The notes under the pieces: model-generated
What the model was told of the DNA's origin: nothing
Database searches by the model: none
Seen by the model: only the letters and a program-made list of their open reading frames with translations
In this document: positions 10,259 through 17,026 of the stretch, one piece after another
Layout of the letters: each line of letters starts with the position of its first letter
Numbering within the stretch: the stretch's first letter is position 1
Virus record (IMG/VR): IMGVR_UViG_2740892258_000019
DNA from: a virus
Taxonomy: Duplodnaviria; Heunggongvirae; Uroviricota; Caudoviricetes
Direction: 5' to 3' (one strand)
DNA: 24,318 nucleotides
Made by a program: the position numbers and the translations under genes

Positions 10259-10268
10259 GGTGCTGCTG

Positions 10269-11457: not shown

Positions 11458-12104
11458 TTCTGTAATCCTTCCCGTTCATCCAGTAACGCGTTTATCTGGT
11501 TCCGCCAGCGACGACATTGTCCTGCGTTGTCGATGATGTTGGCGAGAACGTCACGCTGGGAGACACCCGAATCGCGTAACCGGGTGTCAGTGGTTTCAGG
11601 TTGCCCGGTCGCTGTGCCAGAGCGGGTGCCAGCGGCGGCAACTGAGTCTGAATGACCGGTGTCGACGGATGCGTTGTCATATCCGAGTGCGGCGTTGTAC
11701 TGGCGCACGAAACCGCGAGTAAACACGCACTCAATGGGATGGCTCTTACCTTTTTCATCAATCCAGCGCTGTGTGACATCGTTAATTTGCCCCTGTAGTT
11801 GTTTATTCCGGCTCTCCAGTTGAGCAATCTGCTCAAGATAACCGGCTTCAGCCCGCTGCCCGGCGGCCACCTGCTCCTGATACCGTCTGGCCCAGGCCCG
11901 CAGCGCAGCATTCTCAAGCGTTGCCTGCTCCGTTTTGTACGTGTCGAACGCTGACTGCAACTGACTGAGCGCGGTATCACCGTCACGCTTTGCAGAGTCA
12001 TGACCACTTCTGTATCCCATGGCATACAGGCCGACCAGAAAGGCATTGATAAGAATGGCCAGCAGAATGCCGCGCCACGGCAGCTTTTTAACCAGATGCC
12101 ACAC
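11454..12104 (-). CDS. i-spanin (Rz-like) lysis protein
   Basis: Start re-chosen at GTG preceded by GGGGAGG; N-terminal TM helix (ILLAILINAFLVGLYAM) then coiled-coil periplasmic domain; follows endolysin. Confidence 0.6.
   Translation of the reverse strand: MWHLVKKLPWRGILLAILINAFLVGLYAMGYRSGHDSAKRDGDTALSQLQSAFDTYKTEQATLENAALRAWARRYQEQVAAGQRAEAGYLEQIAQLESRNKQLQGQINDVTQRWIDEKGKSHPIECVFTRGFVRQYNAALGYDNASVDTGHSDSVAAAGTRSGTATGQPETTDTRLRDSGVSQRDVLANIIDNAGQCRRWRNQINALLDEREGLQK
11492..11758 (-). CDS. candidate o-spanin (Rz1-like) embedded in alternate frame of i-spanin gene
   Basis: 88-aa Pro-rich ORF beginning MKKVRAIPLSACLLAVSCAS (signal plus near-lipobox Cys), wholly inside the i-spanin gene. 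Confidence 0.4.
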   Translation of the reverse strand: MKKVRAIPLSACLLAVSCASTTPHSDMTTHPSTPVIQTQLPPLAPALAQRPGNLKPLTPGYAIRVSPSVTFSPTSSTTQDNVVAGGTR

Positions 12105-12603
12105 AACTGCTGCCTCCCCATGTGAGATATCGCGGTGCCAGTTCGCGCAGGATGCGCTGCGGATAATGGCGGTTCTCCCGCCAGCTGGCCGCATTGCGTC
12201 CGGCATTCACCGTGGCGACATGTCCGAACCAGCGGGTGCTGTCCAGCCCCTGCTGCGAGGCCAGCCGTTTGTCCCGCTGTACCCAGCCCAGACCACCGTT
12301 ATAGCCTGACAGCGTCATGGCCATACGCTCGCAGTCACTGGCGGCGCTGACGCGTTGCCACAGCCAGCGGTCATAGCTGACCAGCGCCCGGATGGCCCAC
12401 GCCGGATTAAACGGTTCACGGCTGTTAAGCCCCGGCATCAGCTGACTTATCCAGTCAGCGGTGGTGGGCATAAACTGCGCCAGTCCCTGAGCGCCAGCCG
12501 GCGAGACCGCATCAGGTCGCCAGCCGCTTTCCTGATGCAGCTGCGCGGCGAAGTCGGCCACCGGCGCAGACAGTCCCCATTCAAGCCGGGCATTACGGAT
12601 CAC
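12088..12603 (-). CDS. endolysin catalytic portion (lytic transglycosylase, SLT-like motifs HQESGW / GLAQFMP / YNGG); gene split by upstream 56-bp duplication
   Basis: 171-aa ORF with only a GTG start; reading frame continues upstream into duplicated sequence until a stop created by the duplication. Confidence 0.65.
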   Translation of the reverse strand: MIRNARLEWGLSAPVADFAAQLHQESGWRPDAVSPAGAQGLAQFMPTTADWISQLMPGLNSREPFNPAWAIRALVSYDRWLWQRVSAASDCERMAMTLSGYNGGLGWVQRDKRLASQQGLDSTRWFGHVATVNAGRNAASWRENRHYPQRILRELAPRYLTWGGSSCVASG

Positions 12604-12708
12604 ATCATCGCGATACTGCAGCGCAACCTGCGGAGGCTGCGCTGCGCATGCCGGATCACATCATCGCGATACTGCAGCGCAACCTGCGGAGGCTGCGCTG
12701 CGCATGCC
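12597..12708. repeat. perfect 56-bp tandem duplication (2 copies) at the junction of two endolysin ORF fragments
   Basis: ggatcacatcatcgcgatactgcagcgcaacctgcggaggctgcgctgcgcatgcc at 12597-12652 repeated exactly at 12653-12708. Confidence 0.9.
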
Positions 12709-12884
12709 TGGCTGAAAAAGCCGCCACACCAGAGCAACATTGCGACAAAGAATACCCATGCCATATGAACCAGAAAGGTCCCGGCGCGGACTGACAGGCG
12801 TTCGGTTCTGATGAAGACCCGAAAGGCTTCGAAAGCCAGTTTCAGGGACATGCATACAATCCAGGTGATCTGCGGCCAGTTCAT
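12600..12884 (-). CDS. endolysin N-terminal signal-anchor fragment (frameshifted by 56-bp duplication)
   Basis: 94-aa ORF with hydrophobic MAWVFFVAMLLWCGGFF segment; its ...QPPQVALQYRDDVIR matches the in-frame upstream extension of the catalytic ORF. Confidence 0.45.
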   Translation of the reverse strand: MNWPQITWIVCMSLKLAFEAFRVFIRTERLSVRAGTFLVHMAWVFFVAMLLWCGGFFSQACAAQPPQVALQYRDDVIRHAQRSLRRLRCSIAMM

Positions 12885-13484: not shown

Positions 13485-14255
13485 ATGAAAATGCAGACAT
13501 TACCCATCGTTCCATGGATTGGTGGCAAACGCCGCCTTGCAAAACACATCCTGCCGCTGTTTCCGGCGCATGAATGTTATGTGGAGCCGTTTTGTGGGGC
13601 AGCAGCGCTCTATTTTCTTAAGGTACCCGGCAAGATCGAAGTCATTAATGATATCAACGGTGAGCTGGTGAACCTGTATCGGGTGGTAAAACATCATCTG
13701 GAAGAATTTGTACGCCAGTTCAAATGGGCGCTGGTCAGCCGGCAGATCTACAAATGGCTGCAGATCACCCCGGAAGAAACACTGACGGATATCCAGCGTG
13801 CAGCACGGTTCTACTACCTTCAGAAGCAGGCGTTTGGGGGCAAGGTGGCGGAGCACAGCTTTGGTACCTCCACCATATCCCCGCCACGCTTCAACCTGCT
13901 GCGTATTGAAGAAGAACTGTCAGCGGCACACCTGCGGCTTTCCAGAACGGTCATAGAACACATGGACTGGCAACAGTGCATAGAACGATATGATCGCCCG
14001 CATACGTTGTTCTACTGTGACCCTCCATACTGGGGAACGGAAGGTTATGGTGTGGAGTTCGGACTAGAAAATTATGATCATATGGCAGATTTAGCACGCA
14101 GGATCAAAGGGAAGATGATTATATCGGTGAACGATATCCCGGAAATGCGGCAGGCATTCAACGGTCTAAATATTCAGTCGGTTGATATCAGCTACAACCT
14201 CAAGATCACTGGCAAATCCAGTCGCAAGAAGGAACTCATTATCCTCAACTTTTGA
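13485..14255 (+). CDS. Dam-family N6-adenine DNA methyltransferase (orphan)
   Basis: 256 aa with N-terminal PWIGGKRRL (AdoMet motif) and catalytic DPPY motif (FYCDPPYWG); no adjacent nuclease-like gene recognised. Confidence 0.85.
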   Translation: MKMQTLPIVPWIGGKRRLAKHILPLFPAHECYVEPFCGAAALYFLKVPGKIEVINDINGELVNLYRVVKHHLEEFVRQFKWALVSRQIYKWLQITPEETLTDIQRAARFYYLQKQAFGGKVAEHSFGTSTISPPRFNLLRIEEELSAAHLRLSRTVIEHMDWQQCIERYDRPHTLFYCDPPYWGTEGYGVEFGLENYDHMADLARRIKGKMIISVNDIPEMRQAFNGLNIQSVDISYNLKITGKSSRKKELIILNF

Positions 14256-15450
14256 CCGAATAGTAAGACTTCATGCAGTGAATCAAGTACTGCATGAAGT
14301 CAAGGGCTGGTTTTGTGTACCAAAAATAAACAGTGATAGCGGTAATAATTCCCATAACTAGAACACCACGTATAATCCAGAACGTACGTTTCTGCGTGTC
14401 TAGTCGCGCAGAAATACTGCTAAATACACCAGCCACGTCATCTTTAATGAAGGAATATTCCTTATTAATCTGTTTTTCTTTGTATTCAATTTCTTCGCCT
14501 AAGGCCTTTATAGATTGCATCTGGTTCGAAAGTGCCAGCCAGATTAACGTTGCAGCAAAAATGCATCCCAGAAGAATTATTGTGTTTGTTATCCCTTGGC
14601 CTGACCATTTCGTAGCCACTTTGAATTGGGTAGCTACGATAACAGAGGCAACAGGAATGCCAAGTATATGGTTCTGGATATCTGAAAACGCTTTGTGGAT
14701 TTTACCCATTTCTTCGACTTTTGCAGCACGCAGTTGATCCATTACTTTGTCATAAGAGAATCCAGAAGAGTAGATACGATACCCTTTCAGAAACTTTTCA
14801 TGCAGACGCTGAATATTGTCCAGTAAATAAGCGAATACTAGAGGTGAATCAATTCCATCACTAACTGCTTGAATACTTTCAATCAGAATATCTAGCTTCT
14901 GATCCTTATGGGTATCATCATTGAAACAAGCTATAAGGTTATCAAGATACTCCCTTTGCAAATTTTGTACATTTTCTGCAGCGAAGTGCGGTAATAGCTT
15001 GATAACTTCTTTTTTCAGAAAAACTAACTGACAAGTTGAGTTATCAAAGTAGGCCGCGGCCTCTTTTAGCAGGTTAACGAACTCGAGAATCTTCCGGTAG
15101 TTGCTGATGAAAACGGGGATATCTTCATCATCATTACGAAATTTTGTTTCTAGGATGAAGTAATTAGCTGGCTCAAGGCACTGATGCTTTGGAGCATTTA
15201 GCAATTTTTCATGGGTGGAAAACACAAGTCCCAGTCCACTCCGTGGTGACGTCACACGTAGGATGATCGTGTTACCTGGAGCGATAGTGCCTGTATCAAT
15301 AGAAAGACCATATTCACGAGGATCATCAAGCAAAGTATCAACCAGATCACAATCGGACTGATCTAAGAGCAACAGCGAACCGACACGAAACCCCTCTTGG
15401 AATTCCATACGACGATACAGAGCTGTCAGCATCTCAAATGAAATCGCCAC
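14245..15450 (-). CDS. 401-aa protein with large cytoplasmic N-domain and two C-terminal transmembrane helices; second gene of repressor-linked cargo pair
   Basis: Low-GC ORF; TM segments ITNTIILLGCIFAATLIWLAL and FWIIRGVLVMGIITAITVYFW; 2-bp gap after upstream gene; no known catalytic motif. Confidence 0.7.
   Translation of the reverse strand: MAISFEMLTALYRRMEFQEGFRVGSLLLLDQSDCDLVDTLLDDPREYGLSIDTGTIAPGNTIILRVTSPRSGLGLVFSTHEKLLNAPKHQCLEPANYFILETKFRNDDEDIPVFISNYRKILEFVNLLKEAAAYFDNSTCQLVFLKKEVIKLLPHFAAENVQNLQREYLDNLIACFNDDTHKDQKLDILIESIQAVSDGIDSPLVFAYLLDNIQRLHEKFLKGYRIYSSGFSYDKVMDQLRAAKVEEMGKIHKAFSDIQNHILGIPVASVIVATQFKVATKWSGQGITNTIILLGCIFAATLIWLALSNQMQSIKALGEEIEYKEKQINKEYSFIKDDVAGVFSSISARLDTQKRTFWIIRGVLVMGIITAITVYFWYTKPALDFMQYLIHCMKSYYSVKS
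14268..14300. terminator. 12-bp perfect inverted repeat hairpin at the convergence of dam and the cargo cassette
   Basis: acttcatgcagt-gaatcaagt-actgcatgaagt; no clear U-tract; lies within the last codons of the minus-strand gene. Confidence 0.35.
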
Positions 15451-15452
15451 GA

Positions 15453-16460
15453 TTAAACCTCAGTCATCCACATTTCCCTAAATTCTTCAGGTACATTACG
15501 TAGGGTGATAATATTTGTTTCCGGATCATAATCAATATAGCCTTCAGTTTTCCCTTCCCGGTCAAACTTAAGTTCCCAATATTTAGACTTGCCTTTAAAA
15601 GATACCAGAGCCCGAATGACTCGACCATCAGGAACGAAGCCATCCGATAACTCCAACTCTTCAGCAGCAAGTTTACCAGATAACTCCTCGGGAGCCTGGG
15701 GCCAAATGGCATTAACAAGGGTTTCAAGACTAAGTGGTTCACCAGCCTTACTTAGTGCATGTAAGTGTTCAAACGCACTCTTAAGAAATGCATCTTTTTC
15801 AGCGCCGTCAAGTCCTTTCTCTGCCGCAAATGCTTTTAAAACGTCACGTAACTTTTCAGACTCTCGTTTGGCGATTAAGACATCATTACAGCCTAGGAAC
15901 TGTTTAAAATAGTTTGAAACATTACCTTGCCCCTTAAGAAAACTGATATAGCGCTCTGCGCCACTTTCCCACGCGGTTAAGTCAATGCGCCCAGCCATAC
16001 GCAGCTTAGCAATATCAAGATAGGTACTATCTTGGATGTTAAAATCATCTGTGACAGTGGACCCAATGGTAGCGCTTACAATAGCTATCAACAGGTGTTC
16101 ATTGTGTCCTATCACGATATTTGCAAAAAGAACATAACCACCAGTAGCCATGTTTTCTCGCTGAGAACGTTCCGTCAGGTGATGCATCATTCGGCAGGAA
16201 CTTTGGTAGAAATCATCAACACCTTCGAGAAAGTCCCCAGCCATTCGTTCCATAGGATAGTTATCCGTATCGCCTTCAAAATAGCCATAACCTTTACCTG
16301 TGCGTCCTGCATATTTTGCACAAATATCGTTTATAAGGCGCTGAGAGGCTTCAGTAACTAGACCTTCTTCAGGACTCAATCTCTCAGAAGCGTCTCCATT
16401 TTGTTGTTTGTCTAAAATGTGAACTACAACGTGTTTAACTTCAATGGTCTGCTCAGACAT
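15453..16460 (-). CDS. NdpA/YejK-like nucleoid-associated protein family (NA37-like) homolog; first gene of cargo pair
   Basis: 335 aa (same length as E. coli YejK); N-terminal KHVVVHIL, GKGYGYF, central GGYVLF, IDLTAWE...YISFLKG and C-terminal YDPETNIITL pattern match my recollection of the NdpA family; SD AAGGTGGA upstream. Confidence 0.6.
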   Translation of the reverse strand: MSEQTIEVKHVVVHILDKQQNGDASERLSPEEGLVTEASQRLINDICAKYAGRTGKGYGYFEGDTDNYPMERMAGDFLEGVDDFYQSSCRMMHHLTERSQRENMATGGYVLFANIVIGHNEHLLIAIVSATIGSTVTDDFNIQDSTYLDIAKLRMAGRIDLTAWESGAERYISFLKGQGNVSNYFKQFLGCNDVLIAKRESEKLRDVLKAFAAEKGLDGAEKDAFLKSAFEHLHALSKAGEPLSLETLVNAIWPQAPEELSGKLAAEELELSDGFVPDGRVIRALVSFKGKSKYWELKFDREGKTEGYIDYDPETNIITLRNVPEEFREMWMTEV

Positions 16461-16530
16461 TGGCTATCCACCTTATTTTTTATTGCTTAATGGCAAATAA
16501 TTTCTGCTATATGTTCTCGTTAGGAACACA

Positions 16531-16938
16531 TTAACCCACATTTTTTAACCGCTCAATCGTTGCGGATAATTCCTTCAGTTGTTTTTCCATCTCAATCACA
16601 CGCTGTTTTTCTTCAGCGCCTCGCATGAGATCTCGCCGAACCTCAGGATCTAACTGGTTTAGAAGTTCAAGCATTTTAAGGTCTGACGGGCTGAATTGAT
16701 GTTGTGTTGGTACAGCAACAATTTCTTTAGATGGAATATGTTCTTTACCGGTAAGTAGCCAATCGATTGATACACCCAAATGGGTACTTAGCGCAACAAG
16801 AGCCTCTGCGTTTGGTTCTCTCTCTCCACGCAAATAGTTTTGAAGTGAGCGATATGGAATTTTTGATAAGTCAGATAATGCCTTTATTGTCATGCCATTA
16901 GCATCCATCACTTCACGCAATCTCTCTTTTGTACTCAT
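16531..16938 (-). CDS. prophage repressor, HTH XRE/Cro-CI family
   Basis: Start re-chosen at internal ATG (MSTKERLREVMDANGMTIKALSDLSKIPYRSLQNYLRGER...); divergent from ner; low GC; hydrophobic N-terminal track extension looks non-coding. Confidence 0.75.
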   Translation of the reverse strand: MSTKERLREVMDANGMTIKALSDLSKIPYRSLQNYLRGEREPNAEALVALSTHLGVSIDWLLTGKEHIPSKEIVAVPTQHQFSPSDLKMLELLNQLDPEVRRDLMRGAEEKQRVIEMEKQLKELSATIERLKNVG

Positions 16939-17026
16939 TTGAACATATCTCAATTTGACACACTCATTTGGGTGTGTACAATAGACCCAATAGAGTACAT
17001 CATAACCTAACAGGAACACGGTGCAT
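16939..17026. promoter_or_regulatory. divergent repressor/ner promoter-operator region with ACACAC-N8-GTGTGT inverted repeat (16958-16977)
   Basis: 88-bp AT-rich gap between divergently transcribed repressor and ner; repeat read directly. Confidence 0.45.

Follow-up and report, generated by a model that had tools for sequence, protein, structure and literature searches.

A mobile two-gene cassette distantly related to the anti-phage system DS-1 behind the repressor of a transposable prophage

The window analysed here, a 24,318-nucleotide stretch of a tailed-phage genome (Caudoviricetes; IMG/VR record IMGVR_UViG_2740892258_000019), carries two adjoining genes directly behind a prophage repressor: gene A, which encodes a nucleoid-associated protein of the YejK/NA37 family, and gene B, which encodes a predicted membrane protein. 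An earlier note, made from the sequence alone, had picked out these genes as a candidate defence pair for which no described system existed. Judged by their sequences, the two proteins are distant, significant homologues of DS-1A and DS-1B, the components of an experimentally validated anti-phage system. Our reading, which we consider likely, is that the pair forms an anti-phage cassette of the same kind as DS-1 and type II PANGU and travels as exchangeable cargo, housed here within the immunity region of a transposable, BcepMu-like prophage. Systems of this kind are already known, and what is new here is a divergent, mostly phage-borne branch of them.

Homology to DS-1 and type II PANGU

DefensePredictor validated 42 systems, DS-1 among them (bioRxiv 2025, Science 2026; PMC13092281). 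The Escherichia coli genes of DS-1 encode WP_000355468.1 (DS-1A, an NA37 protein of 391 aa whose N-terminus carries a zinc ribbon) and, following it, WP_000150292.1 (DS-1B, 404 aa); cloned alone with its own promoter in strain MG1655, the system lowered the plating of phage Bas1 by 7.6 logs, of Bas26 by 2.7 and of Bas3 and T3 by 1.7 logs each, and its report gives no mechanism (PMC13092281). The corresponding NCBIfam models are NF053868 (DS1_1, 'nucleoid-associated anti-phage protein') and NF053869 (DS1_2, 'anti-phage protein'). Protein A matches the first with an E-value of 1.4e-17 (63.7 bits) and protein B the second with 3e-21 (75.9 bits), a model that is also matched by 51 of 51 sampled members of the B family. 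Direct comparison by BLASTP gave 23% identity for A against DS-1A (E 8e-9, residues 34-217) and again 23% for B against DS-1B (E 6e-10), while alignment of the B-family profile with DS-1B by hhalign reached a probability of 95.6% over 273 columns. The gene order is likewise shared, an NA37 protein being followed by a partner of about 400 residues after a 2-bp gap (221777/221780 in DS-1), and DS-1B resembles B in its acidic N-terminal part and hydrophobic C-terminal helices, although its hydrophobic segments are weaker on the Kyte-Doolittle scale. The claim that no described system is built in this way therefore has to be given up, since the DS1_1 and DS1_2 models match both proteins, DS-1 has been validated and type II PANGU has been defined. 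The defence role itself gains support from the homology of both proteins to DS-1, and for the pair in the window we infer it from there. The two window proteins (WP_000003711 and WP_001007984) were not found among the DefensePredictor table rows listed; a member of the A clade at 40% identity, WP_077474557.1, has a DefensePredictor log-odds of 11.7.

The second relative, type II PANGU, consists of a YejK-like nucleoid-associated protein (NAP), Pag2A, and an effector, Pag2B, in which an N-terminal acidic, DNA-mimicking DMK domain is joined to a C-terminal transmembrane domain (Li et al., bioRxiv 10.64898/2026.04.06.716658, April 2026). In PANGU-Ecu, from E. coli, both genes are needed and infection is met by growth arrest resembling abortive infection (Abi); upon T4 infection Pag2A departs from the nucleoid, and the isolated DMK domain of Pag2B is bound by Pag2A with a dissociation constant (KD) of 19 nM (10.64898/2026.04.06.716658). 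These functional traits (the need for both genes, the KD of 19 nM, relocalisation and Abi) are those of PANGU-Ecu only. What the window pair shares with type II PANGU is the bicistronic arrangement of a YejK-like NAP with an effector that is acidic at its N-terminus and, by prediction, membrane-spanning at its C-terminus, the occurrence in E. coli, the wide distribution and the horizontal mobility. Type II PANGU operons were defined by a neighbour less than 40 bp away, and in the window the distance is 2 bp; the C-terminal transmembrane domain asked of the effector is predicted for B. Type II PANGU is linked to defence genes in some genomes, and so are some homologues of the window pair. The preprint does not mention prophages, whereas the subfamily of the window is mainly phage-borne and occupies cargo slots of Mu-like, lambdoid and P2-like prophages. 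Type I PANGU (Pag1A with Pag1B, a GRel toxSAS) offers a looser parallel: it too has a NAP as sensor, an acidic DNA-mimic domain recognised on the effector and phage-induced degradation of the host genome as the proposed trigger, but its effector is a soluble alarmone synthetase (making pppGpp) within a solved heterotrimer, whereas B, a predicted membrane protein, lacks any recognisable enzyme domain.

That the first product would be NA37/YejK-like had been proposed in the earlier note, and the assignment is firm: A matches the Pfam family NA37 (PF04245) from position 1 to position 324 of a 325-position profile (E 1e-80; 272.1 bits, the gathering threshold being 24.6), and phrog_3767 with 7e-117. 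The expected fold was found as well. The AlphaFold2 (AF2) model of A, with a predicted local distance difference test score (pLDDT) of 84.4, was matched by Foldseek to the crystal structure of E. coli YejK (9be2) with an E-value of 7.8e-20, a probability of 1.00 and 26% identity; the TM-score was just 0.51 because the orientation of the domains differs. Against the housekeeping YejK, phmmer gave 7e-30 at 26% identity. A nevertheless scores 186.2 bits with the YejK equivalog model NF001557, below its cutoff of 341, which places it in a mobile paralogous clade and not with chromosomal yejK; its closest relatives form a separate clade borne on mobile elements. YejK/NdpA and A thus share the fold and a full-length NA37 domain, whereas the former sits at the chromosomal yejK locus and the A clade is found on prophages and islands, where the partner gene always follows.

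Protein B had been described as a large cytoplasmic domain with two C-terminal transmembrane (TM) helices, and this architecture is what the predictions return. No Pfam domain was found by profile search, and B has no solved relative by sequence or fold, the searches of PDB sequences with the single sequence and with the family profile both being empty; it does match phrog_5023 (E 2e-142). The family is large, with 1277 matches at E <=1e-3 in a profile search of 1.84 billion cluster representatives at 50% identity. In the AF2 model (pLDDT 82) an alpha/beta domain (residues 1-212) of mixed strands and helices is followed by a very long helix (213-275) and a helical hairpin (285-378). The first domain carries a net charge of -14 (pI 4.6), and its equivalent is acidic in 50 of 51 diverse family members, with a mean charge of -8.5; by analogy with Pag2B, it may be the part that binds the NAP. 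Conservation in the family is highest along the juxtamembrane helix, up to its entry into the first hydrophobic segment (GY..F.SGFSYDKV...AKVEEMGKIHK.FSDIQN.ILGIPVA); it holds the majority of the invariant columns (G223, F231, S232, Y233, K235, K250, D257, I258, Q259, P266, A268 and T274), and this helix is also the best-aligned block against DS-1B. Exactly two hydrophobic segments are present in 49 of 51 members, with a further, marginal one at residues 262-280 of B by the Kyte-Doolittle measure. Between the two predicted TM helices lies a 44-residue helical hairpin with the invariant polar residues N309, Q310, E320, R349 and Q353, and the AF2 model draws the whole C-terminus as helices 285-331 and 333-378.

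Genomic contexts and mobility of the pair

The pairing of A with B is tight. Scanning IMG/VR for the B family gave 56 loci. Upstream DNA is present in 54 of them, and every one of these 54 has an NA37 gene immediately upstream and in the same orientation. In homologous pairs the gap between the genes ranges from -11 to +16 bp, and the two proteins diverge in parallel (A at 97, 87, 50, 47 and 43% identity against B at 94, 76, 38, 35 and 35%). Compared with a 92%-identical E. coli copy, dN/dS is 0.039 for A and 0.075 for B, a strong purifying selection which indicates that both are real, selected genes and not chance open reading frames (ORFs).

The pair is horizontally mobile cargo. The region finds a match in 67 of 5426 complete E. 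coli genomes, of which just 19 hold the pair. Its surroundings vary between carriers: in Mu-like prophages it lies between the early region and the holin, on either side of dam (loci L008, L023 and L034 have it on the side opposite to that in the window); in lambdoid prophages it is flanked by the Q antiterminator and the holin and runs opposite to Q and the lysis genes; and in a P2-like prophage it adjoins gpD. Sinorhizobium phage phi2LM21 carries it too, and so do integrative and conjugative elements (ICEs). In Pseudomonas aeruginosa it belongs to an integrase-proximal island, beside AAA_21 plus HNH (Septu-like) and OLD-TOPRIM plus UvrD (Gabija-like) genes, and on a Paraburkholderia island it is found near an Mrr restriction gene. 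A homologous pair in a lambdoid prophage of Citrobacter has as neighbours a retron-like reverse transcriptase with an SMC-like ATPase, and SLFN/AlbA_2 and colicin-domain genes (L007 13976-17155; L005/L006 12039-13265), so that the late region of that prophage is densely loaded with cargo.

Related prophages that share the repressor, ner and dam flanks keep other genes in this slot, for example a 177-aa ORF in the Klebsiella phage KP12 record and ORFs of 297 and 145 aa in E. coli strain Ecol_448. These relatives, together with the occurrence of the pair in lambdoid, P2-like, ICE and island contexts, argue for a mobile unit and not a core component of the phage. The neighbourhood survey beyond Mu-like prophages thus upholds what the earlier note had supposed, namely that the genes travel together, that they were acquired horizontally as a unit and that they are no fixed part of this phage family.

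Across the related prophages we counted slot ORFs of 297 + 145, 242 + 134, 177, 188 (DUF2441) and 233 aa (L010 4607-5897 and 2274-3382; L009 4304-4837 and 2676-3242; L008 5125-5826, the last being the 233-aa ORF). None of them had a match in PADLOC, and those of KP12, Ecol_448 and L008 had no informative match in Pfam. The interval between repressor and dam is variable, but its other contents do not show it to be a defence hotspot; the alternative ORFs are candidates for further cargo expressed in the lysogen.

Proposed mechanism and competing explanations

For the way in which such a cassette could work we adopt the steps of the PANGU preprint (10.64898/2026.04.06.716658). In the lysogen, A would sit on the host nucleoid and B would be held in the inner membrane by its two C-terminal helices, with the acidic N-terminal domain facing the cytoplasm. 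A superinfecting lytic phage that degrades or disrupts the host chromosome would strip A of its DNA, and the freed A could then bind the putative DNA-mimicking domain of B. This binding would activate the membrane module, and the infected cell would arrest or die before progeny are made, as in abortive infection. Since temperate carrier phages do not destroy the host genome, carriage of such a sensor could be safe for them. The analysis itself shows the domain anatomy, the homology, the constant pairing, the mobility and the selection; DNA binding by A, its binding to the effector, the trigger and the membrane activity are all carried over by analogy.

Several points weigh against assigning the pair to this kind of system. 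Identity to DS-1 is just about 23% for both proteins, and their NCBIfam scores lie far under the equivalog cutoffs (330 for NF053868 and 315 for NF053869). DS-1A differs in a CxxC...CxxC extension of about 40 aa at its N-terminus, a zinc ribbon which A does not have. The measured protection against phages is that of DS-1, the subfamily of the window being known from sequence alone, and the likeness to Pag2A and Pag2B, the Cluster 2 of the preprint, is one of described architecture. 'DNA mimicry' by the N-terminal domain of B has net charge as its sole basis. PADLOC 2.0 has no model for A or B (its search returned nothing for A), and within the window the sole known defence gene next to the pair is an orphan Dam methylase. 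PANGU itself is described in a preprint, where it is stated that how Pag2A activates Pag2B is unknown (10.64898/2026.04.06.716658).

The competing explanation that fares best, which we nonetheless regard as rather improbable, turns the direction of signalling around. Here B would sense adsorption, DNA injection or envelope stress, upon which the NAP would be released or licensed to coat and block phage DNA, giving superinfection exclusion without obligatory cell death. The composition of the pair, a membrane protein with a DNA-binding protein, is that of the two-gene defence system Kiwa, where the gene order is the reverse. In addition, the C-terminal region of B matches the PADLOC model of KwaA (best E 8e-5), and the KwaB structures 9mtn and 9mrx stand in the Foldseek list of the A model. 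The place behind the repressor recalls lambda cI-rexA-rexB, in which a two-gene module for exclusion by abortive infection follows the repressor on the same strand and encodes one cytoplasmic and one membrane product. RexB has four TM helices, however, and RexA is not an NA37 protein; no relation of sequence or fold between the pair and Rex was detected in PADLOC, Pfam and the PDB, beyond which nothing was sought. The PANGU preprint, too, leaves the signalling direction of type II open and considers in one passage that PagB might be the sensor (10.64898/2026.04.06.716658); it nonetheless has NAP relocalisation and Abi-like arrest for type II, which fits the first direction better.

The resemblance to Kiwa does not hold up on inspection. 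KwaA is matched by just 3 of 51 members of the B family and no profile match to Kiwa chains in the PDB was obtained, so we rejected homology of B to KwaA; the match probably reflects transmembrane composition. The KwaB structures appear at ranks 16, 20 and 34 with E-values of 0.8-1.7 and probabilities <=0.08. Profile searches of PDB sequences found neither Kiwa protein, and PADLOC gave no match to KwaB. As an aside, the non-significant KwaB alignments are long (356 columns), with a TM-score of about 0.2, and it is curious that A and B each weakly echo one half of Kiwa, an echo without statistical support.

A related thought, to which we give a similarly small chance, is that the phage-borne branch could be a Rex-like immunity module, co-transcribed with the repressor and following a logic unlike that of the published PANGU model. 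Its membrane protein might sense injection or envelope events, or else the module might be tuned so that replicative transposition of the carrier itself, by which the host chromosome is disrupted too, fails to trigger it. If true, this would imply a step of self/non-self discrimination that is new for NAP-based defences, and a new type of membrane effector, one without a solved relative, could be defined by the juxtamembrane helix (residues 213-275) and by the polar residues that lie within the TM helices and between them.

We think it improbable to a still greater degree that the pair is cargo benefiting the host in some other way, be it exclusion of plasmids or conjugation, a toxin-like addiction module, or a stress or virulence factor. 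The lack of defence matches among the alternative slot contents would suit such a role, the fold of B points to no activity, and the retention of the cassette in a decaying prophage (see below) would fit an addiction module too. Yet an anti-phage effect has been measured for DS-1, to whose proteins both A and B are homologous, homologous pairs adjoin known defence genes in other genomes, and nothing favours another host benefit over defence. PANGU constructs, single genes included, were non-toxic (10.64898/2026.04.06.716658), which argues against a classical toxin-antitoxin system. Last and least probable, the pair might serve the phage itself, as a nucleoid organiser that acts in transposition or in the silencing of the prophage and is paired with a membrane anchor, or as a regulator of lysis timing: Mu-type transposition uses host nucleoid proteins, the pair stands immediately beside holin and lysin genes in Mu-like and lambdoid prophages, and both families score strongly in PHROGs, but close relatives of the prophage manage with unrelated ORFs in the slot, a Salmonella Typhi prophage (see below) keeps only a remnant, the strand is opposite to Q and the lysis genes in lambdoid phages, the P. 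aeruginosa and Paraburkholderia islands have no phage genes nearby, and the homologue DS-1 protects when cloned alone in MG1655.

The locus within a decaying prophage

The features of the locus are collected in Table 1. Two minus-strand reading frames separated by 2 bp had been claimed and are indeed present, and the RefSeq annotation of the identical E. coli locus has the same two coding sequences. Read directly, the junction is GAG GTT TAA TC GTG, with the Shine-Dalgarno-like GAGG at 15458-15461; this layout, a motif within the end of A, a stop codon, two nucleotides and the start of B, implies translational coupling. The leader of A contains a ribosome-binding site, AAGGTGGA, at 16467-16474.

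Table 1. Position and basis of the annotated features of the locus in the window
Feature	Position	Strand	Description or basis
Gene A, predicted DNA-bound sensor	15453-16460	(-)	335 aa, ATG start; YejK/NA37-family nucleoid-associated protein, DS-1A/Pag2A-like
Gene B, predicted membrane effector	14245-15450	(-)	401 aa, GTG start; DS-1B/Pag2B-like
B residues 1-212, acidic alpha/beta cytoplasmic domain, candidate DMK DNA-mimic	14815-15450	(-)	Charge, AF2
B residues 213-275, long juxtamembrane helix	14626-14814	(-)	AF2 and conservation
B residues 285-311, predicted transmembrane helix 1	14518-14598	(-)	Hydropathy (Kyte-Doolittle), highest 19-residue mean 2.33
B residues 356-378, predicted transmembrane helix 2	14317-14385	(-)	Hydropathy (Kyte-Doolittle), highest mean 1.95
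A/B junction	15451-15461	(-)	GAGG motif within the end of A, TAA stop, 2-nt spacer, GTG of B
Leader of gene A	16461-16530	(-)	70 nt, AT-rich, GC 0.33; repressor stop to A start codon
Prophage repressor	16531-16938 (to 17034 with the longest start)	(-)	HTH_3 E 6e-12, Phage_CI_repr E 2.5e-6
Divergent control region between repressor and ner-like early gene (17021)	16939-17020		82 bp
Dam-family orphan DNA adenine methyltransferase	13485-14255	(+)	MethyltransfD12 E 7e-28, TIGR00571, PADLOC MTase_II E 4e-115

The position behind the repressor was correctly read: a gene of the HTH_3/CI type (DicA/RstR-like in NCBIfam; 408 nt as a RefSeq coding sequence) lies on the same strand, 70 bp upstream of the ATG of A. 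A scan of the leader found no terminator-like site between repressor and A, and expression of the pair in the lysogen is therefore plausible, its probable source being read-through transcription from the repressor. The strongest promoter-like site faces right (TTGACA-16-TACAAT, 16955-16982 on the plus strand, 11 of 12 positions, a match to the consensus only) and is probably the early promoter under repressor control, while a weak one (16595-16566 on the minus strand, 9 of 12) lies within the repressor gene. Shuffled sequence contains such sites about as often: for promoter-like sites the count was 9 against 7.0 +/- 2.6, for terminator-like ones 2 against 3.1 +/- 2.2. To the eye, the A leader resembles over its last ~70 nt the leader of the cassette copies in L008 and L023, of which blastn-short recovers the final 10 nt only; a promoter borne by the cassette itself was considered and set aside, this likeness coming without properly spaced sigma-70 hexamers.

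The earlier note had also pointed to a lower GC content of the pair. The difference is there (0.415 in the pair, 0.576 in structural and lysis genes, 0.532 in early genes), but the anomaly is not confined to the two genes, being common to the repressor (0.412) and its flanking spacers, so that the entire leftward unit, 14245-17020, stands out and not just the pair. On the far side of B, the convergent dam gene overlaps its 3' end by 11 bp, and dam borders the variable slot in all related prophages seen.

The early operon (ner-like gene, transposase, ExeA/MuB-like gene, gam and mor) and the late operon (holin, lysin, head and tail) diverge from the central region of repressor and cargo, in the window as in L001 1-32200, the intact copy named below. 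This is not the canonical order of Mu, which has c at its left end, and is a layout which we take to be of the BcepMu type. Set against the intact copy that E. coli M-17 carries (L001; NZ_CP068394, 1667501-1670194), the prophage is defective, having suffered four deletions (at 10262, 12646-12652, 17382/17383 and 17993). One of about 288 bp leaves the large terminase in frame; one of 56 bp splits the SLT lysin into ORFs 12600-12884 and 12088-12603; one of 1568 bp took away DUF3102 entirely, together with the 3' end of the ner-like gene on one side and the 5' end of the DDE transposase on the other; and one of 319 bp lies inside the transposase. These deletions are absent from the best-matching records in the set of 5426 complete E. 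coli genomes. The segment 12646-17382, with the pair, the repressor and dam, is undeleted and 99.96% identical to the intact M-17 copy.

A different fate is seen in a related Mu-like prophage of S. Typhi (CP029870; L076 5001-5597), which lacks the partner, dam and the repressor and in which a 198-aa NA37 fragment, 100% identical to part of A, lies between the transposase region and the holin. With 2702 blocks of the collection listing this fragment, the deletion appears to be fixed in the lineage.

The pair exemplifies the way in which defence systems now come to be recognised, for a pairing first taken to be undescribed had been validated and named within the past two years; on defence hotspots of Mu-like phages or on NA37 proteins in phages, our literature search turned up only the DefensePredictor and PANGU papers. 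The locus adds context to them, namely a divergent branch of NAP-plus-membrane-effector pairs that is found mainly on temperate phages and is housed in the cargo slots of three unrelated prophage families. With PADLOC giving no match and the NCBIfam scores falling under their cutoffs, prophage-encoded immunity of this type is under-counted. In the window the pair stays intact while the rest of the prophage decays, and the locus offers a natural system for two questions: how the membrane effector of type II PANGU works, and how a prophage that rearranges chromosomes avoids triggering a sensor of genome integrity.

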